DNA of 61,361 nucleotides from Eubacterium limosum (GCA_959020865.1 CAUEUD010000001.1:1-61361); one strand, 5' to 3'. Shown: positions 18,389 through 50,895, counted from the stretch's first letter. Notes: generated by a model not told the origin, from the letters alone. Made by a program: numbers and translations.

Positions 18389-18500
18389 AATGGAAAATTG
18401 AAAATGGAGAATGAAAGAACAAATCGGCAGAACCGATTTGATTATAATCAAATTTGCGGTGCAAATTTGTCCCATAATTTTTCATTTTCAATTTTAAATT
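18389..18500. repeat. Heptamer-armed hairpin element, copy A (symmetric variant)
   Basis: AATGGAA-type arms inverted at both ends; CAAATCGG/CCGATTTG and CAAATTTGC/GCAAATTTG hairpins. Confidence 0.8.
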
Positions 18501-19432
18501 TCGATTAAAGCTCCAGCCCAGGTAAAGCCTGCGCCAAAGCCAGCCATGATCACCTTCATGCCGGGCTTCAGCAGGCCTTTTTCCGCCATCTCCGCATAGG
18601 CGATGGGAATGCTGGCAGAGGAGGTATTGCCGTAACGGTCAATGTTGACATAAACCTTGCTCCGGTCAATCCTGGCCTTTTTAGCCACATAGTCGATGAT
18701 GCGGATGTTTGCCTGGTGCGGGATGATCCAGTCAATGTCGGCGATGGTGAGGCCGGATTTTTCCAGAGCCCTGTCCACTGCCTCTGACATGGCTTTTGTT
18801 GCAAAGCGAAAAACCGCGTTGCCATCCATGGTTACCGGCCGGTGCACTGGCAGCGATTTTGTCTCCAGCGCCCCTGAGGAATCCCCTCTGGCTGCCGCAT
18901 AAAAACAGGACTGCCTGGCCGGGTCTGCCTTTAACACCATAGCTCCGGCGCCATCTCCGAAAAGCACACAGGTACTCCGGTCCTCCCAGTCCAGCACATT
19001 GGAAATCACCTCAGCCCCCACCACACAGGCATGGTTTATCTGTCCTGTTTCCAGCAGGGCTGAAGCCACATTCATGGCGTAGAGATAACCCGAACAGGCT
19101 GCGTTGACATCAAACGCCATCACCGGCAGTTCTTTTATCCCGAGCTTTTCCTGGATCAGGCAGGCGCAGGAGGGCGTGAAATTTTCCGGCGTAAAGGTCG
19201 CGGTGACAATACAGTCAATGTCCTCTGGTTTCAGCCCGGCACGCTCAATGGCTTTGGCTGCCGCCGCATATCCCAGATCCGAGGTGGTCTCATGCGCTGC
19301 GATAAAACGCGCGCCGATTCCGGTACGGCTCCTGATCCACTCGTCGCTGGTATCAACCCTCTTGGCCAGATCATCGTTGGTCACGCAGTTTTCCGGTACG
19401 GAAAAAGCGCTTGATAATATTTGTATTCCCAT
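18494..19432 (-). CDS. fabH: Beta-ketoacyl-ACP synthase III
   Basis: NAACSGY, PHQANIRI, GNTSSAS, GFGAGFTW. Confidence 0.96.
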   Translation of the reverse strand: MGIQILSSAFSVPENCVTNDDLAKRVDTSDEWIRSRTGIGARFIAAHETTSDLGYAAAAKAIERAGLKPEDIDCIVTATFTPENFTPSCACLIQEKLGIKELPVMAFDVNAACSGYLYAMNVASALLETGQINHACVVGAEVISNVLDWEDRSTCVLFGDGAGAMVLKADPARQSCFYAAARGDSSGALETKSLPVHRPVTMDGNAVFRFATKAMSEAVDRALEKSGLTIADIDWIIPHQANIRIIDYVAKKARIDRSKVYVNIDRYGNTSSASIPIAYAEMAEKGLLKPGMKVIMAGFGAGFTWAGALIEI

Positions 19433-19434
19433 TG

Positions 19435-20241
19435 CTACGCTCCTATTTTTCGGAACTTTTCATAGCGTTCTGCTGTCAGCTCCATTGTCTTTTTCCGGCC
19501 CAACGCCTTGAGGTCACGCTCGATCAGAGCGTCCATCTGTGAGACGACGAAATCCACGCACTGCTCCACACCATCTGCCGGTTCACTGATGATTTCATCT
19601 ACAATGCCCTTGCGGTGCAGATCCTGGGCGGTAAGCTCCATGACTTCAGCTGCCTCCTGCACGCGTGAATCGTCCTTCCACAGGATACTCGCAAAGCCTT
19701 CGGGCGACAGCACCGAGTATACCGCATGCTCCATCATATAAATCCGGTCTGCCACACTCAGGGCCAAAGCGCCGCCGCTGCCGCCCTCACCGATAACCAG
19801 GCACAGCACCGGCACTCTGAGGTCTGAAAAAACTTTGAGACATTCGGCAATGGCCGAGGCCTGTCCTCGCTCCTCTGCTCCCCTGCCCGGGTAAGCGCCG
19901 GAGGTGTCCACAAAGGTGATGACTGGCCGTTTAAATTTTTCCGCCTGCTGTGCGAGCCGCAGTGCCTTTCGGTAGCCCTCCGGGTTCATCATTCCAAAGT
20001 TGCGGTCAAGGTTTTCCTGGAGGTTGGTTCCTTTATTCTGTGCCAGAATGGTAACCGGCTGGCCGTGAAAAAAGCCAACGCCCGCCAGAAGCGCCTGATC
20101 ATCACCATACAGACGATCGCCGTGCAGCTCCATAAAGCCGTCAAAGAGCGCGTCTATATAGGCCTGAGCGCGGGTGCGTTCCGGCCGTCTGGCCATCATC
20201 ACCTTGTCCCAGGCCGTCCATTCTTTGTTTTCTTCTGTCAT
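19435..20241 (-). CDS. accA: Acetyl-CoA carboxylase carboxyltransferase alpha
   Basis: LHGDRLYGDD, PEGYRKALR, GEGGSGGALA. Confidence 0.95.
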   Translation of the reverse strand: MTEENKEWTAWDKVMMARRPERTRAQAYIDALFDGFMELHGDRLYGDDQALLAGVGFFHGQPVTILAQNKGTNLQENLDRNFGMMNPEGYRKALRLAQQAEKFKRPVITFVDTSGAYPGRGAEERGQASAIAECLKVFSDLRVPVLCLVIGEGGSGGALALSVADRIYMMEHAVYSVLSPEGFASILWKDDSRVQEAAEVMELTAQDLHRKGIVDEIISEPADGVEQCVDFVVSQMDALIERDLKALGRKKTMELTAERYEKFRKIGA

Positions 20242-21110
20242 CAGCCTCTCCTCTCATGAAGAACCAGCAGCTTTTCGATGGTTGATTTCATCTGGCTGCG
20301 GTGCACAATGGCGTCAATGGCGCCCTTTTCCAGCAAAAACTCTGCCTTCTGGAAATTCTCCGGAAGCTTTTCCTTGATGGTATTCTCAATCACACGCTTG
20401 CCCGCAAAGCCGATAAGGCTGTCCGGCTCAGCGATGAGAATATCCCCGAGCGTCGCAAAGCTGGCGCTGACGCCTCCGGTGGTCGGATTGGTCAGAACAC
20501 TCAGGTAAAAACCGCCGGCTTCTGAAAAACGTTCAAGGGCCGCGCTGGTTTTAACCATCTGCATAAGGGAGACAATTCCTTCCTGCATCCGCGCGCCGCC
20601 GGAGGCGCAGAAGATCACAAGGGGGAGTCTCTTTTTAGTGGCAAGCTCGATCAGGCGTGTAATCCGTTCGCCAACGGCACTGCCCATGCTGGCCATCATA
20701 AAACGGCTGTCCATGACAGCCACAGCTGTCTTTTTGCCTCCAATTTTTCCAATGCCGGTCAGCACTGCCTCAGACATGCCTGTCTGGCGCTGGCAGGAAT
20801 CAATTTTCTCTGTATAGCCTGGAAAAGCGTCGGTATCCGGGTTGACCAGATTTTTATCAATGGCTGAAAAGCTCCCTCTGTCACAGATCTGGCGCACTCT
20901 CTCTCTGGCGCTGAGCTTGTAGTGATAGCCGCATTCAGGGCAGACATACAGGTCATGCATCAGCGATTCGGAGGGGGTACTTGCCTTGCACTTCGGGCAG
21001 GTAATAAACACGTTGTCCGGTATGTCGCGGCCCTGCTTGTCCTTGATGGCGTGGCGCAGTGTCTTGAACAGCGTCAGCTTGTTTTTTCTTTCCTTAAACG
21101 ATTGTTCCAT
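20241..21110 (-). CDS. accD: Acetyl-CoA carboxylase carboxyltransferase beta
   Basis: Zn ribbon CPKC/CPEC, SGGARMQEG, PTTGGVSAS. Confidence 0.95.
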   Translation of the reverse strand: MEQSFKERKNKLTLFKTLRHAIKDKQGRDIPDNVFITCPKCKASTPSESLMHDLYVCPECGYHYKLSARERVRQICDRGSFSAIDKNLVNPDTDAFPGYTEKIDSCQRQTGMSEAVLTGIGKIGGKKTAVAVMDSRFMMASMGSAVGERITRLIELATKKRLPLVIFCASGGARMQEGIVSLMQMVKTSAALERFSEAGGFYLSVLTNPTTGGVSASFATLGDILIAEPDSLIGFAGKRVIENTIKEKLPENFQKAEFLLEKGAIDAIVHRSQMKSTIEKLLVLHERRG

Positions 21111-22458
21111 TATCCTTCAGCTCCTGTACAAAGGTATCGACATAGCCGGTGTCAAAGCGGCCCTTGATAAATTCCGGCTCGTGCATCAGCACATACAAAA
21201 ATTCCACATTGTTGGGAACACCCTCAACGATCAGCTCTTCCAAAGCGATCCGCATTTTCTTAATGGCCTCCAAACGGGATTCACCGTTTGTGATGCATTT
21301 TAAAATCATGGAATCGTAATAGGGCGGAATGTCATAGCCGTTGTAGATGGCTGTGTCCACACGCACACCTCTGCCTCCCGGAAGATTCAAAAAGCTGATA
21401 TGTCCCGGTCTTGGGGCAAAATCCGCGCTCACATCCTCGGCGTTGATCCGGCATTCGATGGCGTGGCCCAGACAGCGGATATCCTCCTGCTTCAGGTTAC
21501 ACTTCTTCTTATCCGCAATGCGGATCTGCTGCTTGATCAGGTCGATGCCTGTGATCATTTCGCTGATGGTGTGCTCAACCTGTATGCGGGTGTTCATTTC
21601 CATAAAGTAATAACGCTCTGCGCCGTCCCACAGAAATTCAATGGTTCCAACGCTGTTGTAGCCCACGTGGCGGCTGGCCTTGACCGCATCGGCGGTCATG
21701 GCCTCCCGTATCTTTTCCGGAAGACAGCAGCAGGGTGCTTCCTCAACAATTTTCTGGTTACGGCGCTGAAGCGAGCAGTCCCGCTCAAAAAGATGCAGGA
21801 CATTGCCGTAATGGTCTGCCAGAAGCTGTACCTCGATATGCTTGGCGCTCTGCACGACCTTTTCGACATAGACGCCGTCGTCGCCAAAGGCTGTCCTCGC
21901 CTCTGCCCGGGCTGTGGTATAGGCGTCAATAAAATCCTCCTCGGATTCTGCGACGCGCATACCGCGTCCCCCGCCGCCGCTTCTGGCTTTAATGAGCACT
22001 GGAAACCCAATGTCCCTGGCGACCTGAAAGGCCTCGTCCAGCTCTGCCACACCTCTGGAACCGGGAATAACAGGCACTCCTGCCTCAATCATGGTCTCCT
22101 TGGCTCTTGCCTTGTTGCCCATCATCTCGATGACATCGGCGTCCGGGCCAATAAAAATAAGCCCGCATTGTTCAACCAGACGCGCAAAGGCTGGATTTTC
22201 AGAGAGAAACCCAAAGCCCGGATGGATCGCATCGCAGCCGGTGAGACAGGCGGCGCTTAAAATACGCTGCATATTCAGATAACTTTCATCAGATCTCGGA
22301 CCGCCGATGCACACCGCCTTGGTGGCGTACTGTACATGCAGCGCGTCCTTGTCTGCTGTCGAATAAATCGCCACCGTTTCGATGCCCATTTCCTTGCAGG
22401 TCCGAATAATCCGGACGGCGATCTCTCCGCGATTGGCGATTAAAATACGTTCAATCAT
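21094..22458 (-). CDS. accC: Biotin carboxylase
   Basis: ILIANRGEIA, HPGFGFLSEN, ERDCSLQRRNQK, EMNTRIQVEH. Confidence 0.96.
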   Translation of the reverse strand: MIERILIANRGEIAVRIIRTCKEMGIETVAIYSTADKDALHVQYATKAVCIGGPRSDESYLNMQRILSAACLTGCDAIHPGFGFLSENPAFARLVEQCGLIFIGPDADVIEMMGNKARAKETMIEAGVPVIPGSRGVAELDEAFQVARDIGFPVLIKARSGGGGRGMRVAESEEDFIDAYTTARAEARTAFGDDGVYVEKVVQSAKHIEVQLLADHYGNVLHLFERDCSLQRRNQKIVEEAPCCCLPEKIREAMTADAVKASRHVGYNSVGTIEFLWDGAERYYFMEMNTRIQVEHTISEMITGIDLIKQQIRIADKKKCNLKQEDIRCLGHAIECRINAEDVSADFAPRPGHISFLNLPGGRGVRVDTAIYNGYDIPPYYDSMILKCITNGESRLEAIKKMRIALEELIVEGVPNNVEFLYVLMHEPEFIKGRFDTGYVDTFVQELKDNGTIV

Positions 22459-22904
22459 TGGGCCTCTCCAATACAAATGATTTTTTCATCATATTCCACC
22501 ATGGTTTCATTTTCGACATTGATGGCTGTAATGACGCCGTCGCGGTCGCTGCGGATTTCATTCATCATCTTCATGGCCTCAATAATGCACAGAAGGTCTC
22601 CCTTCCTGACGGTATCCCCTGCCTTTACCAGCGGTTCGCCGTCTTTGATGTTGGAACGGTAAAAGGTACCCACCAGAGGCGATTTCACCCAATGGCCCTT
22701 GGCTTCCTCGCAGACTTCAGCCGCACTGGCATCCGGCACTGCCTCTGGAACCATTGTCTGTTTAACAGCCGGCACAGCGGCCACGACGGCGCTCTCTGTT
22801 CCTTTTTCTAATTTTATGGTAACGTCCCCGCTCTGCAGCTCCATTTTTGAAAGGGCGGAACTGTCAAAGATCTGGACTATTTTTTCAAGTTCGTTAATGT
22901 TCAT
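22455..22904 (-). CDS. accB: Biotin carboxyl carrier protein
   Basis: SPLVGTFY, EAMKMMNEI biotinylation site. Confidence 0.95.
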   Translation of the reverse strand: MNINELEKIVQIFDSSALSKMELQSGDVTIKLEKGTESAVVAAVPAVKQTMVPEAVPDASAAEVCEEAKGHWVKSPLVGTFYRSNIKDGEPLVKAGDTVRKGDLLCIIEAMKMMNEIRSDRDGVITAINVENETMVEYDEKIICIGEAQ

Positions 22905-22949
22905 CCGTTTACCTGCCTGTGAGTGCCGGGGAGCTTGCTCCCCAGCCCC

Positions 22950-23171
22950 TTATTTATTTTCAACGATATTCAGAATATCCTGAACCGTTTTTAAATTTGC
23001 CAATGCGTCGTCTTCGATACGGATATCAAATGCGTTTTCAAGTTCCATGGCCAGTTCAACGGCAGATAAAGAGTCAATGCCGAGGTCTTCCTGCAATTTT
23101 GCTTCAGGTACAATTAAGTCCTCATCTACATTGATCGCTTCTACAATAATTTCTTTAACCTGTTCTAACAC
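22950..23171 (-). CDS. acpP: Acyl carrier protein
   Basis: LGIDSL phosphopantetheine motif, acidic 73 aa; TTG start after AAGGAGG. Confidence 0.95.
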   Translation of the reverse strand: MLEQVKEIIVEAINVDEDLIVPEAKLQEDLGIDSLSAVELAMELENAFDIRIEDDALANLKTVQDILNIVENK

Positions 23172-23323
23172 AATTACGTCCTCCTTAAAATTACTTACAG
23201 GTTAAAAGTATATCCGAAATGTTTTCAATTGTAAATAGTTTTATATTAAAATATTTTGAGGTTACGATTTCATTCTTGTTTCTTAAATACTTTTAAGATA
23301 AAACAATACCGCGCCCCCCTTTT

Positions 23324-24814
23324 TCAGCTCAGCGACACCACCTTTGTCGCCACATTTTCCATAAACATCCGGTCATGCTCCACAAAGAGCATGGTCGGCT
23401 CATACTGACAGATCAAATGCTCGATCTGAATTCGGGACAGCACATCAATAAAGTTCAGCGGCTCGTCCCAGATATAGAGATGAGCCGGTTTGCACAGGCT
23501 TGCTGCCAGCAGCACCTTCTTTTTCTGACCGCTGCTGTAATCCTCAAGGCGTTTGTCAAACTGCTCTCTTGAAAAACCCAGCTTTCTGAGGACCGCCTTG
23601 AGCAGGCTCTCGTCAAGGCTGTTTTCACGAATATAATTTCTCAGGCTCCCGGCCAGAAAGGAGGTGTCCTGGGAAACGTAAGAGTATTCAAGATTTGTTC
23701 CAATGATGAGATCTCCGCTGTGGCAGATTTTCTCACCCAAAACCGCTTTCAGGATACTGGATTTTCCACATCCGTTTTTACCGCTGAGGGCCACCCGGTC
23801 GCCACGGTTCACCTCAAAGCTGACATCCTCAAAAACCGCTGTGCCATCGTAGGTGATGGACAGCCCTCTGGCTTCGATCAGCCTGTTTTTAGGATAGCTC
23901 AGATTTTTGATGGCAAGTTCATCGGCCTGGTCAATGTTTTTCAGCAGCTTTGACTTTTCCTCAATGGCTTTTTCCTTTCTCGCCTCTGTAACCTTTGAGC
24001 GCTTCATCATTTTTGCGGCCTTATGCCCCACGTAGCCACGGTCTGGCTTCAGACCTGCCACGAGCTTTCGGCTCGCGCCTTTCTTTGTTTTCTCCACAGC
24101 GTCCGTCCATCCGGCGGTCCGTCTGGCTGCTGTGGTCATTTTCGCAATTTCTTTTTTCAGCTTTTCATTTTCTCCCAGCTCGTACTGGTCCTGTCGCTCT
24201 TTATTCTGCACCCATGATGTGTAATTTCCCCGCTGCACCTCAATATCTGTATTGTTAATGGACAGAATATGGTCCACGCACTGGTCCAGAAAATAGCGGT
24301 CATGGGAGACCAGAATAAACCCACGCTTGGTGTTCAGGTACTGTCCCACCAGCTCTCTTGACGCCATATCCAGATGATTGGTGGGCTCATCAATGAGCAG
24401 GAACTGGTTTTCTCTCAGAAAGAGAACCGCCAGCAGCACCTTGGTCTGTTCTCCATCGCTTAAAGTGTCAAAGGGCCGGTACAGGACATCGTAGTCAACC
24501 TCCAGCATGGAGAGCTCTCTCTGGAGCTCCCAGAACGCGTAATTTCCGCTCAGTGAATCCACCACATCGATGGTATTCCACTCTCTCTGCTCAACCTTAA
24601 AGGGAAAATAAGAAAAATCAACCGACGCGGCAATGGTACCGCTGTATTCATACTGGCCCATCAAAAGCTTTAAAAAAGTAGTCTTCCCTTTACCGTTGCG
24701 CCCGGTAAAGCCCAGCTTCCAGTTGGTGTCAAGCTGAAAGGACACTTTTTCAAAAATCGTATCGTAGCTTCCGTCGTAGCCAAAAGTCAGATTTGATACA
24801 TTTATTAAAGACAT
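23324..24814 (-). CDS. lsa: Lsa-family ABC-F ribosomal protection protein (lincosamide/streptogramin A/pleuromutilin)
   Basis: MSLINVSNLTF.YDGSYD.IFE.VSFQ.DT.WKLG start; two NBDs without TMs; linker D.GYVGHKAAKMMKRSK typical of Lsa; AGGAGG RBS at 24821-24826. Confidence 0.88.
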   Translation of the reverse strand: MSLINVSNLTFGYDGSYDTIFEKVSFQLDTNWKLGFTGRNGKGKTTFLKLLMGQYEYSGTIAASVDFSYFPFKVEQREWNTIDVVDSLSGNYAFWELQRELSMLEVDYDVLYRPFDTLSDGEQTKVLLAVLFLRENQFLLIDEPTNHLDMASRELVGQYLNTKRGFILVSHDRYFLDQCVDHILSINNTDIEVQRGNYTSWVQNKERQDQYELGENEKLKKEIAKMTTAARRTAGWTDAVEKTKKGASRKLVAGLKPDRGYVGHKAAKMMKRSKVTEARKEKAIEEKSKLLKNIDQADELAIKNLSYPKNRLIEARGLSITYDGTAVFEDVSFEVNRGDRVALSGKNGCGKSSILKAVLGEKICHSGDLIIGTNLEYSYVSQDTSFLAGSLRNYIRENSLDESLLKAVLRKLGFSREQFDKRLEDYSSGQKKKVLLAASLCKPAHLYIWDEPLNFIDVLSRIQIEHLICQYEPTMLFVEHDRMFMENVATKVVSLS

Positions 24815-26195: not shown

Positions 26196-27416
26196 ATGAA
26201 CCTGATGACGATTCCGTACCGGACATCGCATATTATGATGAAAGGTGTATTAAATGTACTCAAGCTCCCCATTCCGCCAAGCCTGGTAGGCCCTGGAATG
26301 GTCAAACGTTTCCCGGAAATTATTTCGCTCTGTGATGTACACAAAGCGCTCGTTATTACTGATAAACCTTTAATGGAGATGGGACTGCTCGACGGATTCC
26401 TTGAGGCCCTGAAAAAAGCAGGCATCGACTACTCTGTCTTTGACGGCGTTCAGCCCAACCCGACCTTCGAAAATATTTATGACGGGCTAGAAGCCTACTA
26501 CACCGAGGGCTGTGACGGTGTCATTGCCTTTGGCGGCGGCTCCTCCATGGACTGCGCTAAAATCGTGGCTGCCAAGGTCACCAACGACAAGCCGATTCCA
26601 AAAATGAAAGGCCTGTTCAAGCTGACACACCGCCTCCCGCCGTTCTTTGCCATTCCTACCACGGCAGGCACCGGCTCTGAGGCCACTGTCTGTGCGGTTA
26701 TTACCGATACCTCAAATCACGAAAAATTTGCCATCAATGATCCCAAGCTCGTGCCGCTGGCAACCGTGCTGGACCCTGAGCTCATGGTCGGCCTGCCGCC
26801 GGCTCTCACTGCCAGCACCGGCATGGATGCGCTTACCCATGCGGTCGAAGCTTATATCGGCCACTATGACGCGCCTTTTGTCAAGGAAAAAGCGCTCGCC
26901 GCTACCGAGGTCATTATGCGTGATCTGGAAGCCGTTTACAAAGACGGCTCTAACCTGAAGCTTCGCCAGAATATGTCTGTCGCCTCCTTTGACGCAGGCC
27001 TTGCCTTTACCCGGGCCTATGTGGGCTATGTCCACGCCATCGCCCACAATTTAGGCGGCTTTTACGGTGTGGCCCACGGCTTTGCCAACGCGGTTATCCT
27101 GCCGCACATTCTGGAGTTTTCCAGAGAGGCCGCCCAGAAAAAGCTTTCTGAGCTCGCCCTGTGCGCCGGCCTTGGCGAACCCTGGGACAGCGAGGAAATT
27201 CTGTCCTATCGCTTTATCGACCGGATTAAGGAAATGAACGCCAATATGGGGATTCCGGAAACCATTGATGCGCTGCGCATCGAGGATATTCCTGAGCTGG
27301 CCAGGCGTGTGCTCAAGGAAGCCAACCCAACCTACCCAGTCCCCAAAATCATGGATTATGACGAATGTGTCGCCATGCTTGAAGAGCTGGTGACGCCGGA
27401 GAAGGTTGAGGATTGA
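26196..27416 (+). CDS. Iron-containing alcohol dehydrogenase
   Basis: GGGSSMDCAK, PTTAGTGSE, GMDALTHAVEAY, HAIAH..GG.YGVAHG. Confidence 0.92.
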   Translation: MNLMTIPYRTSHIMMKGVLNVLKLPIPPSLVGPGMVKRFPEIISLCDVHKALVITDKPLMEMGLLDGFLEALKKAGIDYSVFDGVQPNPTFENIYDGLEAYYTEGCDGVIAFGGGSSMDCAKIVAAKVTNDKPIPKMKGLFKLTHRLPPFFAIPTTAGTGSEATVCAVITDTSNHEKFAINDPKLVPLATVLDPELMVGLPPALTASTGMDALTHAVEAYIGHYDAPFVKEKALAATEVIMRDLEAVYKDGSNLKLRQNMSVASFDAGLAFTRAYVGYVHAIAHNLGGFYGVAHGFANAVILPHILEFSREAAQKKLSELALCAGLGEPWDSEEILSYRFIDRIKEMNANMGIPETIDALRIEDIPELARRVLKEANPTYPVPKIMDYDECVAMLEELVTPEKVED

Positions 27417-27461
27417 GGCGGTTATTGATGATGAAGTGGTAAGGCGGACAAAAAACGGCTT

Positions 27462-27603
27462 ATTGAAATGGAAAATGGAAAATGATGGTTCAAATCTGCC
27501 AAAGGCGGATTTGATTGGACGCGGCCTATGGCCGCCTTTCAATCGCTTTTGCCGGGGTAAAAGGGTTCCTGAATTTTCCATTTTACATTTTCAATTTTCC
27601 ATT
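27462..27603 (+). repeat. Heptamer-armed cloverleaf element, copy B
   Basis: AATGGAA arms; CAAATCTGCC/GGCGGATTTG; GCGGCC-tat-GGCCGC; AATCGCTTTTGCC...AAAAGGGTTCC; TTCCATT arms. Confidence 0.88.
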
Positions 27604-27674
27604 ATTTACGAGTCTCTTTTTACCCCTTTGCCTCTTTTTAACAAATTTAATCCACCCCCAAAAGGAGGCGCGGC

Positions 27675-34792: not shown

Positions 34793-34951
34793 TTTTGAGT
34801 TGACAGTTGATAATGGATCGTGGATAGTTTCGGTACAAATGCCCCTGCGCATTTGATGAGAGCACGGCTTTCAGCCGCGGTTTTAATCGCTTGAGCCCGG
34901 GTGAAAGCGTTCCGTAACTATCCACTGTCAACTATCCATTATCCACTAAAA
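34793..34951 (+). repeat. Heptamer-armed cloverleaf element, copy C
   Basis: AGTTGAY/TGGAT arms; CAAATGC/GCATTTG; CGGCT..AGCCG; AATCGC; GTTCC; ATCCACT arms. Confidence 0.85.
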
Positions 34952-36506: not shown

Positions 36507-36650
36507 TTTTTTACTCCTTTACTCCTCAAAAAATGATTATTCAGTTGTCTTCTTTATGCTCAGCTTTGCTGTCAGAAACCTCCTTTCCTCCTTCGCCTGT
36601 AAATGCTTTACATATTCACTTTTTATGTATTTTGTATTGACTTTATGTTA

Positions 36651-36679
36651 ATATTATATGCTTTTTGATGGTTTGTCAA
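36651..36679 (-). promoter_or_regulatory. Putative sigma-A promoter of kinase/G3PDH operon
   Basis: TTGACA with TAATAT at 17 bp (TATAAT overlapping). Confidence 0.55.
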
Positions 36680-36714
36680 CTAATTTTTAAATTTTGCAAA
36701 ATTTACAATAAAAA

Positions 36715-37287
36715 AAGCACACTGGTCTCCACAGTGTGCTTAGCATGTCAAAAACTTTATCATGAAGCGATAAAGCGTTAAAAAGAGGATGGTTCAGTTG
36801 AAAGTTGAAAGTGGAAAATGGAAAGTTCAGGTGCAAATTCGCCATGCGAATTTGATTCGATGCAGCCATAGGCTGCACTTTTAATCGCTTTTGCACCCGC
36901 AAAAGCTCTCTTTAACCTTCCACTTTCAAGCTTCCACCTTCCACCTGAAATTTCCTCTTACTTTTACTTTGAATCACGCTGTCAGCTTTTGGGACAGTCT
37001 AAGCACACTGGTCTCCACAGTGTGCTTAAAATGTCAAAACTCTGAGAGACGAAGCCTTTTACCTAAGGAAGAAAAAAGGGTTCCGCGGGCATTACCCTCT
37101 CCCAGGTATCTTCTTCACTAAAGTTAATGCTTTATCTCGCCAGTGTCCGGCTGTTGCAGTAAAGCGGCACCATTTCCGGCCGTTATTCACAGCGCCAGGA
37201 CCTTTTTTCTTATCTGGATAAAAGGCGCAGTCTCAAACCACGCCACTTCTTTGACGGGATAAACACACTGGTCTCCACAGTGTGCTT
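36715..37287. repeat. Three copies of a 27-bp palindromic repeat (36715-36741, 37001-37027, 37261-37287)
   Basis: AAGCACACTG-GTCTCCA-CAGTGTGCTT, copy 3 with one mismatch; separated by 259 and 233 bp; copy 1 is followed by a T-run on the minus strand (terminator-like). Confidence 0.92.
36793..36949 (+). repeat. Heptamer-armed cloverleaf element, copy D
   Basis: AGTTGAA/AGTGGAA arms; CAAATTCGC/GCGAATTTG; GCAGCC-ata-GGCTGC; AATCGCTTTTGC...GCAAAAGC; TTCCACY arms. Confidence 0.88.
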
Positions 37288-37295
37288 AAATCCTG

Positions 37296-37928
37296 TTAAT
37301 TCCGGCAGATCTGTACGGCAGCCTCGGCGGCGCTTCCTGCGTCCTTGGCAAAGGCGTCACAGCCCGTTTTATCACAGAAATCCTGCGTAATGGGCGCTCC
37401 GCCAATCATAATCTTAAACTGTTCCCGGACACCCGCATCCTCAAAAGCCTTAACAATTTTGGGGATTTCAGGCATGGTGGTGGTCAACAGCGCAGAACAG
37501 GCCACAATATCGGCCTTCTCTTTGACAGCGGCCTCCACAAAACGCTCCTCGGGCACATCAATGCCGATATCCACGACTTTAAAGCCCCGGCCCTCAAACA
37601 TCATTTTTACCAGGTTTTTACCAATATCGTGCATGTCTCCCTTTACGCTTCCCAGCACAATGGTTCCGGCGGCGGTCTGCTGGTTTTCTAAAAGCAGAGG
37701 CTTCAGCACCTCTGACCCGTTCTGCATGGCGTAGCATGAGCACAGCACCTCCGGTATATAGATCTCTTCGTTTTTAAACTCCTCTCCCACCATCTCCATC
37801 GCTTCCATCATGGTGTCCAGAATGGCCTGCGGACTGGTCCCCTTGTCCACTGCCGCCTGCACCATGGAGGGTGTCTCATCCTCTAATCCTTCATAAACCG
37901 CATTTTTTATCTGATCTAATAGATTCAT
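37296..37928 (-). CDS. Corrinoid (cobalamin-binding) methyltransferase protein
   Basis: Cap domain (F...EIYIPEV) plus GDMHDIGKNLV, SALLTTTM, IGGAP B12-binding motifs. Confidence 0.93.
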   Translation of the reverse strand: MNLLDQIKNAVYEGLEDETPSMVQAAVDKGTSPQAILDTMMEAMEMVGEEFKNEEIYIPEVLCSCYAMQNGSEVLKPLLLENQQTAAGTIVLGSVKGDMHDIGKNLVKMMFEGRGFKVVDIGIDVPEERFVEAAVKEKADIVACSALLTTTMPEIPKIVKAFEDAGVREQFKIMIGGAPITQDFCDKTGCDAFAKDAGSAAEAAVQICRN

Positions 37929-42836: not shown

Positions 42837-42934
42837 GGTTATCACTCACTTTCTTTTATAGAGTATTATATCAAGAATTTTTTCAACTGTCGATAAAGAT
42901 TTCGGCATAAAAGTCTTTTAGGTGGAAGGAGAAC

Positions 42935-43071
42935 AGTTGAAAGTTGATAATTTTGGTGCAAATTCACTAAAGCGAATTTGATGAGATGCGACCTGCGGCC
43001 ACAGTATTAATCGCTTTTGTGTCAAGCAAAAGGGTTCAATAACTATCCACTATCAACTCTCACTCTCAACT
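42935..43071 (+). repeat. Heptamer-armed cloverleaf element, copy E
   Basis: AGTTGAW arms; GGTGCAAATTC/GAATTTG; AATCGCTTTTG...CAAAAGGGTTC; ATCCACT/ATCAACT arms. Confidence 0.85.
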
Positions 43072-43141
43072 AACCACTCCTTTTCCTGATTTTTTATGAT
43101 ATAATACTTCCAGAAAAATGCGAATCAGGAGGTTTTTACAC

Positions 43142-44257: not shown

Positions 44258-44284
44258 TTCAAGGTTAAATCCAGAGGCTGTTTT

Positions 44285-44473
44285 AATGGAAAATTGAGAA
44301 TGGAGAATGGAGAATGACGATGAGTCCAAAGTTAGAATAACTTTGGGGAACGAACCTAATGCATAGCTACAGGAACAAAATGCTGCGCATTTTGAATGAA
44401 ATAGCGGCCATAGGCCGCTGTCTTAATCGCTTTTGCGGCAGCAAAAGAGGTTTTTCATTTTCCATTCTCAATT
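44285..44473 (+). repeat. Heptamer-armed cloverleaf element, copy F (with extra hairpin)
   Basis: AATGGAG arms; extra CCAAAGTTA/TAACTTTGG hairpin; CAAAATGC/GCATTTTG; AGCGGCC-ata-GGCCGCT; AATCGCTTTTGC..GCAAAAG. Confidence 0.88.
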
Positions 44474-44527
44474 AACAGTCCTCTCATTCACGTTCTGCCT
44501 GTTTATGATAGCATTTGTCTACACGCT
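44474..44527 (-). mobile_element. MITE-like shell end (AGCGTGTAGACAAA...GAGGACTGTT)
   Basis: Reverse complement aligns with 36742-36794 and 53441-53485. Confidence 0.6.
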
Positions 44528-44529
44528 GC

Positions 44530-44554
44530 GACCGTTTTTATACGGTCTTTTTTT
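44530..44554 (+). terminator. Intrinsic terminator after gldA
   Basis: GACCGT-ttttat-ACGGTC followed by T7. Confidence 0.7.
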
Positions 44555-44776
44555 AATATCACAATTTTTTACCCTTTCTGGACAAAAAAAACGGGAACTT
44601 TTTCTCTTTTTTTTCGATTGTATAGATAGAGGCCTTTACACGTGAATAAGGGCAAAGACAAACAAAAGTTGCTCATTTGGCACTAAAACGCAAAAGCATT
44701 TTTTAAAAGCATTATATATTTCATTTTATAATATATTCACTTAAACCAGATGGTTGCTATTTCTGCCAAAAAAGGA

Positions 44777-44863
44777 ATGTATGTAGTAGAAGCATTTTTT
44801 TACAATGATCAATGAAACACCCTGCCATTTTCAAAAAACTCGGTATGTATGTAGTAGAAGCAT
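44777..44863 (+). repeat. 19-bp perfect direct repeat (44777-44795, 44845-44863)
   Basis: ATGTATGTAGTAGAAGCAT twice, just upstream of the replication initiator RBS. Confidence 0.85.
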
Positions 44864-44882
44864 CTCAAGAGGAGGAAAAAAT

Positions 44883-45599
44883 ATGGATTATCTCAAACAG
44901 CTCAACGCCTACCGGAGAAAGCGCCTGGCAGCGCCCATCTCATCCAACGCCATTGCCCTTTACGCCATTCTGCTGGAGTACGCCAACGACCTGTATTTCC
45001 CAGACCGCTTTACCGCGGCTAATTCAGTGATCTGCGGCCTCAGCGGCCTCAGCCTGACGCGGATGCAGGCCGCCCGGAAGGAGCTCTGTGAAGGCGGTTT
45101 CCTGGCTTATACGAATGGGCACAGGGACCAATGCGGTACCTATCAGCTTACCGATCTGGTTCAAGCCTCCAGCATGCCCCAACAAGACGCAAAACCGGAC
45201 AACAAACCAGTTAGTAAACCGGATACTAAACTGGTTAGTAAACCGGACAGCAAACCGGTTAGTAAACCGGATAACAAACTGGTTAGCAAACCGGACACAT
45301 TAAATAAACCAAACCAAAGCAAACCAGACCAACTAAAAGAGCGCTACGGCGACTTCGTGACCCTCACTCCCGATGAACGGATAAAGCTGAGGGAACGCCT
45401 GGGCGAACCGGACACCGTGCGCTACATCGAAAGACTAAACGAGTACATTGGCCAAATCGGCCAGAAAGCCGCCAATAAGCGCTACAGAAGCCATTACCAT
45501 ACCATTCTCAGCTTTTACCGCAGAGACTCGGAAAAGCGGCATGAACAGCCAAACAGCTCCATTCCAGATTACACCGCAAACAAAGGAGAAAGCCTGTGA
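44883..45599 (+). CDS. Phage-type replication initiator / replisome organizer (N-terminal wHTH)
   Basis: MDYLKQLNAY...SSNAIALY..LL..AN...F.A.NS.....SGLS...AR..L...G pattern; internal low-complexity repeat; GAGGAGG RBS; followed by DnaC-like gene. Confidence 0.75.
   Translation: MDYLKQLNAYRRKRLAAPISSNAIALYAILLEYANDLYFPDRFTAANSVICGLSGLSLTRMQAARKELCEGGFLAYTNGHRDQCGTYQLTDLVQASSMPQQDAKPDNKPVSKPDTKLVSKPDSKPVSKPDNKLVSKPDTLNKPNQSKPDQLKERYGDFVTLTPDERIKLRERLGEPDTVRYIERLNEYIGQIGQKAANKRYRSHYHTILSFYRRDSEKRHEQPNSSIPDYTANKGESL
45192..45299 (+). repeat. Nine tandem 12-bp units (24-bp period); candidate iterons
   Basis: AAACCGGAYANY alternating with AAACYRGTTAGY, followed by an A/C-rich strand-asymmetric tract. 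Confidence 0.9.
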
Positions 45600-46420
45600 A
45601 TTTTGAAGTCAGAATCCCCGATCCCAACGCCGACAGCCCGGAATTTTATATGGAGAACGGACTCAAACACTGTCCGCTTTGCCACACCCCCATGGAGACA
45701 TGGGTGACCCTGGGCGCCACCCGGAAAACAGTATCCTGCCTGTGCCAGTGCAGAACCGAAGCCCGCGACCAGCGTGACCAGGCGTTTAAGGCCCGTCAGG
45801 AAGCAGAGCGTCAGAAAATCCGAAAAGCCTCCCATATTCACGACCCCGCCCTGCGCAGAATGACCTTTGAGGCCGACAATGGCGCCTGCCCCGGGGCCAT
45901 CGAAAAGGCAAAGCGGTACGTGGCGCAGTTTGAGGAAAACCTCAGAGAGAACATCGGCCTGTTGTTTTACGGCGACGTGGGCACTGGAAAGACCTTTACC
46001 GCCGGCTGTATCATCAACGCTCTGGATGACAAGGGCTATAACGTCCTGGGCACCAGTCTCACCCGGCTGAGAGACGACATGCCCGGCGAGTTCGATAAAG
46101 ACCGGAGCCGTAATGCCTACTATGACCGCCTGGCCGGCTATGACCTGGTGCTCATCGACGATTTCGGCATTGAGAGACAGAGCGAATACACCCTGGAACA
46201 GATCTACAGCCTCATCGACGCCCGGTACAAAAGCGGAAAGCCCACCATCATCACCACCAACCTGACGCCCGAGCAGCTCAATCATCCTCAGAGCATGGCC
46301 ACACGCCGCATCTATGACCGCATCACAGGAATGTGCTGCCCCATGCTTTTCGAGGGCCAAAGCCAGAGACAGGCGCAGCACCGGGAAAAGCTGGAAAAAG
46401 CGCGGAAAATGCTGTCTTAA
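45596..46420 (+). CDS. DnaC/IstB-like AAA+ helicase loader
   Basis: CPLC...CLCQC Zn motif, Walker A GDVGTGKT, Walker B LVLIDDFG, IITTNL, RIYDRI; GTGA overlap. Confidence 0.9.
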   Translation: MNFEVRIPDPNADSPEFYMENGLKHCPLCHTPMETWVTLGATRKTVSCLCQCRTEARDQRDQAFKARQEAERQKIRKASHIHDPALRRMTFEADNGACPGAIEKAKRYVAQFEENLRENIGLLFYGDVGTGKTFTAGCIINALDDKGYNVLGTSLTRLRDDMPGEFDKDRSRNAYYDRLAGYDLVLIDDFGIERQSEYTLEQIYSLIDARYKSGKPTIITTNLTPEQLNHPQSMATRRIYDRITGMCCPMLFEGQSQRQAQHREKLEKARKMLS

Positions 46421-46430
46421 AAACTTTCCC

Positions 46431-46484
46431 TTGACAAACCTTTCAAGCGAGTATATACTGTGTATATCGTATATATACAGTATA
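46431..46484 (+). promoter_or_regulatory. Promoter with YtrA-type palindromic operator
   Basis: TTGACA-17-TATACT overlapped by TATACTGTGTATAT-cgt-ATATATACAGTATA inverted repeat. Confidence 0.8.
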
Positions 46485-46503
46485 ACTTTCGAAAGGATCA
46501 TCC

Positions 46504-46881
46504 ATGGATATTATTATCAGCAACAGCAGTGGGAAGCCCATCTATGAGCAGATCACCACGCAGATAAAAAATAAGATCATTACAGGCGAGCTAAGGCCCG
46601 GCGACGCGCTGCCCTCCATGCGCGTTCTGGCAAAGGAGCTGCGCATCAGCGTCATCACCACCAAGCGGGCCTACGCCGATCTGGAACAGGACGGCTTTAT
46701 CGAGACCGCTCCGGGCAAAGGCAGCTTTGTCGCCCAGAAGAATACCGAGTTCATCCGTGAAGAAAATTACCGGCAGATACAGGACCTGCTGGAACAGGCC
46801 ATTGACCTCTCAAAGAGCTGCGGCCTCACCCTTTCTGAGCTCACCGAACTCATCACATTACTCTACAAAGGAGACAGCTAA
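46504..46881 (+). CDS. GntR (YtrA subfamily) transcriptional regulator
   Basis: PIYEQI..QIK, LPSMRVLAKEL.ISVITTKRAY, 125 aa. Confidence 0.93.
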   Translation: MDIIISNSSGKPIYEQITTQIKNKIITGELRPGDALPSMRVLAKELRISVITTKRAYADLEQDGFIETAPGKGSFVAQKNTEFIREENYRQIQDLLEQAIDLSKSCGLTLSELTELITLLYKGDS

Positions 46882-47747
46882 TGGACACTCAAAACGCCAT
46901 TGAAATTAAAAACCTCAGCAAACACTACCCCGGCTTTTCCCTGAAGGACGTCAACTTCAGCCTGCCTTCCGGCAGCATCATGGGCTTTATCGGAGAAAAC
47001 GGCGCGGGTAAAACCACCACCATCAAGGCACTGCTGGGCCTGATCCATCCCGACAGCGGCACCATGCAGATTCTGGGGCTGGACACTGCGCAGAATGAAA
47101 AAGACATCAAAAAAGAACTGGGCGTTGTTTTTGCCGACCAGAACTTTCCCGATGACCTCCGCCCCCCTGAAATCACAAAGATTATGGGGAACATCTATAA
47201 AACCTGGGATAAGGCTCTGTTCGAGGATTACCTCTCACGCTTCAGCCTTCCCGCAGACAAACGGCTCAAGGACCTTTCCAAAGGGATGAAGATGAAGCTT
47301 TCCATCGCCGCCGCCCTGTCCCACAGGCCCAGGCTCCTGATTCTGGACGAGGCCACCAGCGGGCTGGACCCGGTCGTGCGCAACGAAATACTGGACATCT
47401 TTCAGGAATTCATCGAGGATGAGGATCACTCGATCCTTATGTCCTCCCACATTACCAGCGATCTGGAGCGTGTGGCCGACTACATCACCTTTATCCACGA
47501 CGGACAGATTCTGTTCAGCGAGCCCAAGGACGCGCTCATCGAAAACCACGGCATCCTCAAATGCAGCCCGAATCAGTTTGAGACCCTTACCCTCACAGAC
47601 GTTGTGGGTATCCAGCGCTCCAGCTTTGACGTCCAGGTCCTAGTCAAAAATCCAGCGGCCGTGAGAAACCGCTACCGGGACATGATCATCGATCCCCCCA
47701 GCCTGGAGGAGATCATGCTGTTTTATACCAAAGGAGACCAAAAATGA
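46881..47747 (+). CDS. ABC transporter ATP-binding protein
   Basis: GENGAGKTT, LSKGMKMK, LILDEATSGLD. Confidence 0.93.
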   Translation: MDTQNAIEIKNLSKHYPGFSLKDVNFSLPSGSIMGFIGENGAGKTTTIKALLGLIHPDSGTMQILGLDTAQNEKDIKKELGVVFADQNFPDDLRPPEITKIMGNIYKTWDKALFEDYLSRFSLPADKRLKDLSKGMKMKLSIAAALSHRPRLLILDEATSGLDPVVRNEILDIFQEFIEDEDHSILMSSHITSDLERVADYITFIHDGQILFSEPKDALIENHGILKCSPNQFETLTLTDVVGIQRSSFDVQVLVKNPAAVRNRYRDMIIDPPSLEEIMLFYTKGDQK

Positions 47748-48370
47748 AAGGCTTAATCATCAAAGAATTTCTCGGCCTGCGCCGGTATTTCAGAATACTG
47801 GCTGTGCTCATGGTGCTGTATATTTTTATGGCCTTTGGCATGACCTCGGTCAGCATTTTCGCTGCTATCAACGCCATTCTGGTCATGATCTGTTCGCTCA
47901 GCAGCTTCAGCTATGACAGCTACAACCACTGGAACGAATTCGCCATGTCCCTGCCCCTGAGCCGGGCCGACCTCGTGAAAAGCAAGTACCTTTTCATTCT
48001 TCTGCTGTGCGCCTTCGGCACAGCGGTCACCCTCATCCTCAGTCTCATTGTGGGCCTGATCATCCACCTGCCCATGCAGGAGATTTTTATCGCTACCCTG
48101 TGCTCTGCGCTGACCGCACTGTTTCTCGGCGCTCTCACCACACCCTTCATCTACAAATTCGGGGTTGAAAAGGCACGCTACATTCTGATCATTATCGTGA
48201 TGATCCCAACCCTTGTCTTTGTGAGCTTTGGCAGCTATCTGCCTGCGCTCCATCTGCCCTCAGCCCAGACCCTCACCCTGCTGGCCTGGTGCTCCCCGGT
48301 ATTCGTGCTGGCGTTTGTGTTCCTGTCTTATTTGATTTCAAGGCATATCTTTATGAATAAGGATTTGTAG
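47744..48370 (+). CDS. ABC-2 transporter permease (paralog 1)
   Basis: MKGLIIKEF...SLPLSR.DLVKSKY, six TMs. Confidence 0.88.
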   Translation: MKGLIIKEFLGLRRYFRILAVLMVLYIFMAFGMTSVSIFAAINAILVMICSLSSFSYDSYNHWNEFAMSLPLSRADLVKSKYLFILLLCAFGTAVTLILSLIVGLIIHLPMQEIFIATLCSALTALFLGALTTPFIYKFGVEKARYILIIIVMIPTLVFVSFGSYLPALHLPSAQTLTLLAWCSPVFVLAFVFLSYLISRHIFMNKDL

Positions 48371-48399
48371 AATGCCTGCTGCACAAAAAAGGAGTAAAA

Positions 48400-49026
48400 A
48401 TGAAAGGCTTAATCATCAAAGAATTCCTTGGACTGCGCCAGTATTTGAGAGTGCTCGGCTTTCTGCTGCTTGCGTATGGAGCCATGGCTTATATTATGAG
48501 AACCACTGTCTTTATTCCAGTGGTCAACGCTTTTCTGATCATGATCTGTGTACTCAACAGCTCTAATTATGATGACAATAACCGCTGGGAGCAATTTGTT
48601 CTTACTCTACCAGTGTCAAAAAGTGATCTAGTCACCAGCAAATACCTTTTTATCCTTCTGCTATGCATTGCCAGCACTGGTATTACCCTGGTACTGAGCC
48701 TGATTCTCAGTCTGCTGTTTCCTGCTTCTTTAACTACCATCTTTATCGCTTCAGTGGCGTCAGCTTTTGCGGGACTCTTTCTAGCTTCTCTGAGTATGCC
48801 AATCATCTACAGATGCGGTACTGAGAAGGCACGCTACATACTCGTCATCATCATCATGGTGCCCACACTCCTTCTGAGGGCCTTCAGCGATAGTCTAAAT
48901 AAACTGTGCCTTCCCAGCGCACCAGTTCTTGTCCGGATAGGTTTAAGCGCTGCGGCCTTTGTCGTTGTCTTTGCCCTTCTCTCCTATGGTCTGTCACAAA
49001 AACTTTTTGCGGCACGGGAGTTCTGA
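48400..49026 (+). CDS. ABC-2 transporter permease (paralog 2)
   Basis: Same length (208 aa) and motifs as the preceding gene. Confidence 0.85.
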   Translation: MKGLIIKEFLGLRQYLRVLGFLLLAYGAMAYIMRTTVFIPVVNAFLIMICVLNSSNYDDNNRWEQFVLTLPVSKSDLVTSKYLFILLLCIASTGITLVLSLILSLLFPASLTTIFIASVASAFAGLFLASLSMPIIYRCGTEKARYILVIIIMVPTLLLRAFSDSLNKLCLPSAPVLVRIGLSAAAFVVVFALLSYGLSQKLFAAREF

Positions 49027-49041
49027 TTCTTAAATAAACAT

Positions 49042-49099
49042 TTGATCATTATTTGCCGGTAGGTTATAATAAGGTACAAACAGGATGTCCAAACATCCT
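49042..49099 (+). promoter_or_regulatory. Promoter and candidate FadR autoregulatory operator
   Basis: TTGATC-17-TATAAT then AGGATGT-ccaa-ACATCCT inverted repeat. Confidence 0.6.
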
Positions 49100-49127
49100 A
49101 CTAAATGACCTTAGGAGATTTAAAATT

Positions 49128-49844
49128 ATGCCAAGCGACAGAAAAAAACCGGCAAATGCCCTTTCACCCATTGATAACTCCTCCATTGTTGACAAGATTA
49201 TCGACCGGATTGTCAAAGCCATTTCTACCGGACAGTTTAAGGTAGGGGAAAAACTCCCCAGTGAATTTGAGCTCATGGAAGAGCTGAACGTAGGGCGGAA
49301 CTCCCTGCGGGAGGCCATGAAAATTTTATCCGCACTGGGCGTAGTCGATATACGGCGCGGTGACGGCACCTATGTGTGCGATCACATTGCCCCTACAGTC
49401 TTCAACCCCATTATCTACAGCATCATCTTCCAGGCCGAAAGTGACCCGGACATGGTGGAATTCAGAGAGTGTATGGAGGAGATGGTCCTGCGCACAGCCA
49501 TGAAAAAGGCCACCGACGGCGACATCGTCCACCTGAGCCAGATCATCAAGGATATCCGCAAGTCTTATGAGAGCGGCGACAAGGAAAAAGCCGCCTACCT
49601 GGATTACAAGTTTCACGTTGCCATTGCAGATATCTGCGGCAACCCCTATATTTCCAAGCTGGTCAACGGCATCTATGAGATCTTTTCCCTGTCCATTGAG
49701 GATACCATCAATACCCAGGAGCTTTTCGACAAGGCTGAGGGCTATCACAAGGAAATCCTCCGCTGTATTCAGGAAAAGGATGTGAAAAGCATCGACGCCG
49801 CAGTGGAAAAGAGCATGACCTTCTGGCACAGTAAAGAGAGTTGA
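49128..49844 (+). CDS. FadR/GntR-family regulator (FCD domain)
   Basis: KLPSEFEL...VGRNSLREA..L, D.KFH.AIA..GN. Confidence 0.92.
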   Translation: MPSDRKKPANALSPIDNSSIVDKIIDRIVKAISTGQFKVGEKLPSEFELMEELNVGRNSLREAMKILSALGVVDIRRGDGTYVCDHIAPTVFNPIIYSIIFQAESDPDMVEFRECMEEMVLRTAMKKATDGDIVHLSQIIKDIRKSYESGDKEKAAYLDYKFHVAIADICGNPYISKLVNGIYEIFSLSIEDTINTQELFDKAEGYHKEILRCIQEKDVKSIDAAVEKSMTFWHSKES

Positions 49845-49989
49845 TAATTGATAGTGGATAGTTGATAGTTTTGGAACACTTTTGCCTAAGGCAAAAGCGA
49901 TTAGAAGGCGGCCTCTGCCGCGTCCAATCAAATCTGCCGCAGGCAGATTTGCACCTGAACTATCCACTATCAACTATCCACTATTCACC
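49839..49989 (-). repeat. Heptamer-armed cloverleaf element, copy G (inverted)
   Basis: Minus strand: AGTGGAT arms, GGTGCAAATCTGCC/GGCAGATTTG, GCGGC..GCCGC, AATCGCTTTTGCC/GGCAAAAG, GTTCC. Confidence 0.9.
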
Positions 49990-50017
49990 AAAAAAAAGAG
50001 CCCAAAGGCTCTTTTTT
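49990..50017. terminator. Bidirectional terminator
   Basis: AAAAAAGAGCC-caaa-GGCTCTTTTTT between convergent genes. Confidence 0.8.
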
Positions 50018-50681
50018 AATCTAAGTCTGCAATCACACTGACCTGGCTGCTGTCTACGCCTACGATACGCAGCGGAGCGGCAACGACAAAATTGATTTTG
50101 CCCTTTAATTCGGACAGGTTCATGTCTTCGATTGCAGTGATGAATTTTTCAGTGTTCAGGCCTAACAGATTCTGGTGAGCCGGAGCTGCCAGGTCATTAC
50201 AAGGCGAGCCGATTGCCAGGAAGTCAAAGCCCACGCATCTCAGGTTTTTGTAGGTGTTAACCATGTACAGGCAGGTTTCCGGTGTCAGGAATGGGCCTTC
50301 CATCTGATATTTCTTAGGATCTGTTTTTCTTACTTCGCCAAAGCCAGTGCGGATCAGCAGCAGGTCGGCCTGCTGGATTTCGTCTTCATGCTTCTTTAAA
50401 TCCTCGATGGTTACGCCTTCGCAGGCATTTTTCGGAATATCTAAAAGCAGTACTTTTTTGAACACAAAGTAGTCAATGGGCAGCTCATTGATTCTCAGTC
50501 CGTCTGGGTTGAAATGCTTCGGCGCATCATAGTGGGTGCCGCAGTGGTTTGGCAGCTCGGACATAAAGCTGTTGAACGGGGTTTCATCACCGATTTCAGT
50601 ACACTGTCTTACTTTGATGACCGGTTCGCCTGGCCATGCTAAATCGTTCGGGTCCAATGGATAGGATAAGAAAATGTTCAT
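50016..50681 (-). CDS. Cyclase / kynurenine-formamidase-like metal-dependent hydrolase
   Basis: HCGTHYDAPKH (HxGTHxDxPxH), LLIRTG, VGFD. Confidence 0.85.
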   Translation of the reverse strand: MNIFLSYPLDPNDLAWPGEPVIKVRQCTEIGDETPFNSFMSELPNHCGTHYDAPKHFNPDGLRINELPIDYFVFKKVLLLDIPKNACEGVTIEDLKKHEDEIQQADLLLIRTGFGEVRKTDPKKYQMEGPFLTPETCLYMVNTYKNLRCVGFDFLAIGSPCNDLAAPAHQNLLGLNTEKFITAIEDMNLSELKGKINFVVAAPLRIVGVDSSQVSVIADLD

Positions 50682-50744
50682 AAAGTTCACCTCATATAAA
50701 TTTTATTTTATCAAACGGCAGCGTTGGCCGTTAATAATCCCAAA

Positions 50745-50895
50745 ATAGTTGATAGTTGATGGTTGATAGTGGATAGTTTAGGTGCAAATCTGCCCTGCAG
50801 ATTTGATTGGATGCGGCCGCAGGCCGCTTTCTTACTCGCTTAAGCAGGGCGAAAGCGTTCCTCAACTATCCACTATCCATTATCCACTATTCACT
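50745..50895 (+). repeat. Heptamer-armed cloverleaf element, copy H
   Basis: AGTTGAT/AGTGGAT arms; GGTGCAAATCTG/CAGATTTG; GCGGCC-gca-GGCCGC; GTTCC; ATCCACT arms. Confidence 0.88.

Follow-up and report, generated by a model that had tools for sequence, protein, structure and literature searches.

What are the heptamer-armed repeats that lie scattered between the genes of Eubacterium limosum, and by what route do they reach new sites? The question is raised by a stretch of 61,361 nucleotides (nt) from this species (GCA_959020865.1 CAUEUD010000001.1:1-61361; hereafter the window), in which a sequence-only reading had found eight elements made of small hairpins between inverted arrays of a 7-nt unit. 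That reading had named a non-autonomous mobile unit, a recombination substrate and a structured RNA as possible explanations. All eight copies are present where it had placed them, as seen by reading the sites directly. We compared the window with four congeners (G001, G003, G004 and G005). Cassettes of this family have landed at palindromes that resemble intrinsic terminators, and the whole 24-29 nt hairpin is then found on both sides of the cassette. We think it probable that the members of the family are mobile DNA cassettes of foldback type, non-autonomous and unusual in the target duplication that they cause.

The region at 36700-37300 of the window illustrates this. G003 and G005 have one hairpin there, G001 has hairpin, cassette, hairpin, and G004 has hairpin, a unit of a second repeat family, hairpin. 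The host genome carries both inserts, in the order hairpin, cassette, hairpin, family-2 unit, hairpin. A second, unrelated cargo has used the same hairpin, and the hairpin-facing ends of the two cargo families resemble each other for roughly 12 bases. On other contigs, three more cassettes are each surrounded by two hairpins here (28, ~24 and 29 nt), with a single hairpin in relatives; each of these sites was compared with G004, and two were also compared with G001. In all, four cassettes have clean empty sites in congeners, at 87-97% identity, with a lone 24-29 nt terminator-like hairpin there. In the three cleanest cases, the position of the junctions with respect to the stem is the same. 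The idea of a non-autonomous mobile unit, for which a comparison of filled and empty sites had been suggested, is supported by this polymorphism between congeners and by the clean empty sites.

The full cassette is a palindromic unit of 250-277 nt bounded by paired outer modules. From outside to inside, it comprises short inverted termini, a module of ~55 nt, three to five heptamers per side (inverted) and a core of one to three hairpins. The outer modules are conserved on 61 of 186 flanks (31 left, 30 right) and are inverted relative to each other; 67 of the 74 matches to an outer-module profile run straight into a heptamer array. Among the 22 cassettes with both end modules, seven have the same GC-rich, terminator-like hairpin as a direct repeat on both flanks. 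The sequence-only reading had missed these modules and the link to terminator hairpins, and the limits that it drew were too narrow on both sides. Its copy at 36793-36950, for example, is the inner part of a cassette that spans 36745-37001. Many copies have lost their core or outer modules. Those without modules tend more to occupy sites at which a terminator or another spacer is found in relatives, with no clean duplication, and they may be older or trimmed copies.

The copies in the window, and the features associated with them, are as follows.

18389-18501, plus strand: short copy with two hairpins, between two minus-strand genes; abuts the stop codon of a fabH-like open reading frame (ORF).
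27462-27604, plus strand: three-hairpin copy.
34793-34951, plus strand: three-hairpin copy.
36716-36744, no strand assigned: terminator-like hairpin, locus-specific, first copy (the duplicated target; direct repeat family).
36745-37001, plus strand: complete cassette, with outer module, period-7 arm, three hairpins, period-7 arm and outer module.
37002-37030, no strand assigned: terminator-like hairpin, second copy of 36716-36744.
37031-37261, minus strand: unit of the second repeat family, inserted at the hairpin of 36716-36744.
37262-37290, no strand assigned: terminator-like hairpin, third copy of 36716-36744.
42916-43080, plus strand: three-hairpin copy.
44284-44532, plus strand: three-hairpin copy in which ~50 additional nt follow the left arm; its right side carries an outer module.
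49839-49990, minus strand: three-hairpin copy, inverted; the stop codon of the upstream ORF lies within the first heptamer, and a terminator follows the copy.
50745-50895, plus strand: three-hairpin copy, the best match to the model.
53436-53492, plus strand: lone outer module beside a terminator hairpin, without arms or core.

Read site by site, the copies share a plan of heptamer run, short junction, three small hairpins, junction and inverted heptamer run. This plan, as first described, holds for seven of the eight; the copy at 18389 is a two-hairpin variant. Tandem Repeats Finder detected period-7 arrays at one end at least in all eight copies and at both ends in five, and a repeat search of the window grouped the copies into direct and inverted repeat families. 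The copies had also been described as intergenic, which needs qualification for two of them (49839 and 18389), since they touch the stop codon of the upstream ORF. Folded in silico, the copy at 50745 is highly stable relative to shuffled sequences, with -71 kcal/mol (z -7.8) for RNA of one strand, -63 kcal/mol (z -6.9) for RNA of the other strand and -36 kcal/mol (z -6.3) for DNA. A fabH-like protein encoded in the window shares 99% identity with a named record from Eubacterium callanderi, the named species closest to the host genome.

Occupancy of these sites varies from one congener to the next. The copy at 18389 occurs in G004 and G001 and is absent in G003, and the cassette at 36745-37001 occurs in G001 and is absent in G003, G004 and G005. 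Absent in all four congeners are the copy at 42916 and the copy at 27462, where they carry a conventional terminator hairpin at the site. At 34793, G001 retains arms without a core, and the sequence in G003, G004 and G005 is unrelated. G003 and G004 have no copy at 49839, and G001 has only the arms; G005 has a different copy in the opposite orientation. Only G001 has the copy at 50745, with shorter arms, a different hairpin being found in G003, G004 and G005. The copy at 44284 is common to three congeners and has one heptamer fewer in G004 and G005. Heptamer number differs between orthologous copies at shared sites, and as judged from these alignments the arrays gain and lose units. Two side observations belong here. 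Along 27330-27460, the last ~seven codons of the upstream gene and the spacer that holds the copy at 27462 differ from the four congeners; the event there replaced the end of a gene and was more than an insertion. A third repeat, of ~290 nt, lies at L106 4318-4610 (contig C3) in the host genome but not at that site in G004 or G005, and copies 79-86% identical to it are found elsewhere in G003 and G004.

The family is real but considerably larger than the eight copies first reported. Searching the host assembly (G000; a 3.6 Mb draft genome in 327 contigs) by nhmmer, with a profile from the eight window copies, we found 146 non-overlapping loci. Near full length are 106 of these, including 68 three-hairpin copies of 140-165 nt and 36 two-hairpin copies of 110-139 nt; one-hairpin, arms-only and core-less derivatives also exist. 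G004, a congener with ~96% nucleotide identity over the compared regions, has 24 loci in total. When relatives were scanned with a covariance model made from six copies, strong matches were obtained in five of six other species of the genus, weak matches in one of 34 other genomes of the family and order, and weaker matches in 14 of 150 other genomes sampled across the class (Clostridia). The spread of the element is recent and took place within a single genus. No replication-strand bias was seen among 46 listed copies in the complete genome G001, a comparison of low power (by hand tally, and with the origin assumed near base 1, the first half has 10 copies on the plus and 13 on the minus strand, and the second half has 13 and 10, respectively).

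The repeat had not been recognised as a named family, and our searches agree. Rfam gave no match at the gathering score in the window or in two loci of a relative, and a permissive Rfam scan of 36650-37350 returned nothing meaningful (best E-value 0.7). No description of this repeat in Eubacterium emerged from a literature search, the reach of which did not extend to repeat lists in supplementary files.

Among the class-level matches, three were inspected, and two of them have clear period-7 arms around different cores. The elements at L157 1501-1646 and L158 1501-1633, from two other families of the class, have inverted period-7 arms whose heptamers are identical or similar in type to ours, and different cores; one of the two adjoins a terminator-like hairpin. 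On contig C4 of the host genome, two copies with identical model scores (14137-14292 and 14632-14787) are separated by 495 nt and have similar flanks, suggesting that a unit of 495 nt was recently duplicated in tandem.

Is it the structure of the element that is conserved? Covariation of the hairpin stems had been claimed from the eight copies. We assessed it with 50 three-hairpin copies from 83 loci, taking the better-scoring strand of each and a structure fixed beforehand. Paired cells amount to 84.7%, compared to 78.5% in shuffles, and the covariation score is 0.243, compared to 0.134, neither value being reached in any of 500 shuffles; these copies are paralogues, and inherited changes are counted many times. 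With partners slid by 1-3 columns, the score is at most 0.101. In hairpin 1, pairing reaches 97.2% and six of eight pairs have changed on both sides; hairpin 3 shows double-sided changes in four of eight pairs, and hairpin 2 is mostly invariant. The covariation of the stems that had been claimed is real.

The broader proposal, that structure is conserved over sequence, holds for hairpins 1 and 3 but not for the arms, which are kept as a heptamer consensus. Arm pairing is 81% Watson-Crick (83 copies), and an arm's own partner is seldom its best, with a median of 14 of 82 foreign arms pairing better. The long period-7 stem envisaged earlier is not supported as a strictly pairing structure. The arm type was said to switch in concert at both ends, and this is so as a tendency (agreement in 60 of 83 copies) but not as a rule (disagreement in 23). 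Heptamer positions 2 and 7 covary between the arms, whereas position 4 does not; in the innermost unit, position 4 is T:C 11 times, G:A 16 times and T:A once. One arm type may resemble replication-initiator boxes, a likeness on which we rest no claim.

Given such stems, the family could be a structured RNA module that acts in cis within mRNAs, as a stabiliser, attenuator or inter-cistron insulator, its spread being secondary. Besides the covariation, several observations fit this idea. Some copies stand in place of a terminator. On the strand that begins with hairpin 1 and ends with hairpin 3, the fold of the core is the more stable one in 70 of 106 copies (mean difference, 2.8 kcal/mol), and G-U pairs number 422 on the better-folding strand versus 288, with several core pairs mostly G-U there. 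Other observations do not fit. Relative to flanking ORFs, as called by a crude ORF caller, 106 copies show no orientation bias (30 same, 29 opposite, 22 convergent, 9 divergent, 16 at contig edges). Nor is there strand asymmetry in the arms, because wobble-compatible mismatches are similarly frequent on the two strands (G:T plus T:G 116, A:C plus C:A 108). Rfam holds no match, as said, and copy number differs ~sixfold between genomes that are ~96% identical.

RNA-seq of a cultured relative bears on the same issue. We used X21 reads on the G004 locus, where 113,765 of 129,972 reads match at 99% or better, and where three copies lie between same-strand genes. All three are transcribed. Read depth is 218 at copy 1 (neighbours 197 and 200), 342 at copy 2 (neighbours 394 and 243) and 149 at copy 3 (preceded by 84). 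At the coarse resolution of 634-nt bins, there is no depth bump in the bins holding the three copies, and termination by the element, of the kind associated with SPRITE repeats, was not seen, depth being similar on both sides in all three cases. None of the 36 read starts and ends listed, out of 270, falls within a copy. Long RNA contigs span all three copies; such contigs show presence, not starts, ends or levels. Because depth resembles that of the neighbours and long RNA contigs cross the copies, we conclude that the copies are transcribed passively with their operons. At these three loci, RNA-seq showed neither a discrete RNA nor a transcription block. A structured RNA, one of the options originally raised, thus gains no support from orientation, from the wobble symmetry of the arms or from these reads, and we consider a cis-acting role as the basis of the family unlikely.

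The second repeat family deserves separate description. Its units (37031-37261 on the minus strand of the window; L142 13623-13825 and 13930-14115) belong to a dispersed repeat of ~200 nt, with 69 BLAST rows on ~50 contigs of the host genome and no Rfam match. The units often form tandem series in which copies of one hairpin alternate with them, and the two ends of a unit can form a stem of ~34 bp. In the relative, RNA depth over this family reaches thousands, compared to a few hundred for neighbouring genes, indicating a highly expressed RNA of ~200 nt. Both tandem copies have, on the antisense strand, an ORF of 47 codons that includes a hydrophobic stretch.

If the cassettes are mobile, what moves them? 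The trans-acting enzyme was predicted to lie outside the window, and a scan of ten ORFs close to window copies showed ordinary genes. Considered as a candidate and rejected was the ORF enclosed by the copies at 49839 and 50745, which are inverted relative to each other, as it encodes a putative cyclase; the others are metabolic or housekeeping. A small ORF that starts in the outer module of copy 36793 was also set aside, its start codon being missing in other copies. The Y1 transposase family (PF01797) occurs in 32 of 41 relatives (six of six congeners, 25 of 34 other relatives searched); it is found whether or not they hold the element, and hence it neither discriminates between them nor tracks the element. 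Larger copies enclosing an ORF had been suggested as a place to look, and no long composite with the same ends was found in the host genome or in four congeners. In the host, no pair of end modules >500 nt apart encloses a gene, although the draft assembly may hide such an element, and none is apparent among the module matches in the congeners.

Two other features of the gene neighbourhood were noticed. A tandem repeat with period 12/24/48 (45180-45311) lies inside the ORF at 44805-45599, which has a weak helix-turn-helix match below the Pfam cut-off. The adjacent ORFs at 47744-48370 and 48400-49026, of 208 codons each, are paralogues, with stretches (47727-47940 versus 48383-48596) that are 73-82% identical.

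A mechanism for mobile cassettes can be sketched as follows. An enzyme encoded elsewhere would cut or attack the palindromic target at its two flanks, and gap repair would then copy the hairpin, in a way reminiscent of the repeat duplication that accompanies the uptake of a CRISPR spacer. Only copies able to fold as a single strand or a cruciform would be propagated, which would explain the covarying stems. The period-7 arrays would grow by slippage and be kept alike by descent and by exchange between the arms; a period of 7 has been proposed to favour polymerase slippage, an idea cited in the accessible part of PMC4679880. A more specific version, which we offer tentatively and by analogy with Cas1-Cas2, is that a structure-specific integrase, possibly host-encoded, recognises terminator palindromes that are extruded or symmetric and attacks both of their flanks, each insertion duplicating the hairpin. 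Two or more unrelated cargoes, among them the foldback cassette and the ~200-nt expressed RNA unit, would use this integrase route, arrays would grow stepwise, and the related elements with period-7 arms in other Clostridia would be a sign of this machinery there too.

Alternatively, no dedicated enzyme would be needed if long palindromes and terminator hairpins stalled replication and if template switching or gene conversion copied cassettes between hairpin-bearing spacers. Spacers that bear copies are hypervariable and often replaced whole, core deletions between arms are common, heptamer numbers change at orthologous sites, and the 495-nt tandem duplication carries two identical copies, all of which fit this route. 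However, the target hairpins vary from locus to locus and have no sequence in common by which a switch could be guided, the junctions keep the same stem-relative place in the three cleanest cases, and two unrelated cargoes, with ends alike over about a dozen bases, show the same duplication at one hairpin. We consider the enzyme-free route quite improbable. Least plausible of all is that the heptamer arrays are bound by a host protein with affinity for DNA or RNA (a regulator, nucleoid protein or cold-shock-type single-strand binder) and that the copies are a regulon or titration sink: the heptamer consensus is kept better than arm-to-arm pairing, period-7 arms occur with different cores in other families of the class, and the accessible portions of two papers note heptanucleotide arrays of Geobacter metallireducens annotated as putative global regulator sites (PMC2700814) and one cold-shock protein per heptamer for Bacillus CspB (PMC4679880), yet no shared function is seen among ten scanned ORFs near window copies and copy presence is not conserved between close species.

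Several points weigh against mobile cassettes that duplicate their target, and they temper our preference for this reading. Clean empty sites number only four loci, and 15 of the 22 cassettes with paired ends are without clear hairpin duplication. Most copies, including five of the eight in the window, have no outer modules, and at several module-less sites the whole spacer differs from that of relatives, so that no simple insertion is seen. No autonomous partner or candidate enzyme was found in the searches above. The one-strand folding advantage of 2.8 kcal/mol is not something that a purely double-strand mechanism predicts. Finally, a target duplication of 24-29 nt is far longer than usual for transposons, and for this reason another route, such as cruciform cutting or template switching, could give the same pattern.

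How does the element compare with known systems? Foldback (FB) elements of Drosophila have long inverted arms built of short tandem sub-repeats, variable in number, around a variable middle; they are eukaryotic and much longer. The likeness is one of form only, with period-7 arrays on both arms and a varying number of units, and no descent is implied. REP/BIME sequences, served in trans by the RAYT enzyme, are dispersed extragenic palindromes near gene 3' ends in which structure matters; they have units of 20-40 nt and no target duplication, whereas the units described here are 130-277 nt with duplication. Pneumococcal BOX and enterobacterial ERIC repeats are modular, with variable inner modules, and are co-transcribed and stably folding, their mobilising enzyme not being known. 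Compared by description, BOX and ERIC are not known to have period-7 arms or hairpin duplication. In spacer uptake by Cas1-Cas2, a palindromic repeat of ~30 nt ends up on both sides of the insert, and repeated events build arrays. Here the likeness lies in the outcome only, with a stepwise array-like arrangement at 36716-37290 of the window. The inserts in our case are 230-275 nt and self-folding, and the repeated hairpin is a locus-specific terminator, features that do not match those of a CRISPR array.

The element has the formal marks of a MITE (short for miniature inverted-repeat transposable element), though we found no parent element, and its duplication is unusual in length and nature. 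It has terminal inverted repeats; it is small, non-coding and present in many copies (units of 130-277 nt, 146 loci), with no ORF inside the element and only spurious ORFs overlapping its copies; and the target duplication is single in the empty sites at four loci, with an atypical length of 24-29 nt. MITEs such as Correia, RUP and QMITE invite a direct comparison. In the accessible sections of PMC10969869, which also mention BOX and SPRITE repeats, MITEs are likewise small, ORF-free, intergenic and present in many copies, with inverted ends and target duplications; they also have stable stem-loop transcripts, and they cluster and nest with other repeats. In contrast to these, the target duplication here is a whole palindrome of 24-29 nt and not a few bases, the arms are heptamer arrays, and no parent insertion sequence with the same ends was found. 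Short heptanucleotide arrays, dispersed and intergenic runs of two to six heptamers with no known role, are described in the accessible portions of papers on Geobacter metallireducens (PMC2700814) and on Beggiatoaceae and cyanobacteria (PMC4679880), some of them drawn as inverted pairs. Their heptamers differ from ours, and these portions make no mention of hairpin cores, outer modules or duplication of a target hairpin.

If the family does consist of mobile cassettes, it would represent a small mobile element that selects terminators for its insertion and ends up with an intact one at either end, which would explain how >100 copies can be carried with little harm. Such a family would also imply an insertion chemistry that generates a palindromic duplication of 24-29 nt; we know of no description of such a duplication for bacterial transposons. 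The acetogens whose operon spacers the family reshapes serve in gas fermentation and live in the gut. It likely contributes to breaks in short-read assemblies, several copies lying at or near contig ends, and because strains differ strongly it could serve as a typing marker. The period-7 arms found with other cores in other Clostridia hint at a wider, unnamed class of elements.

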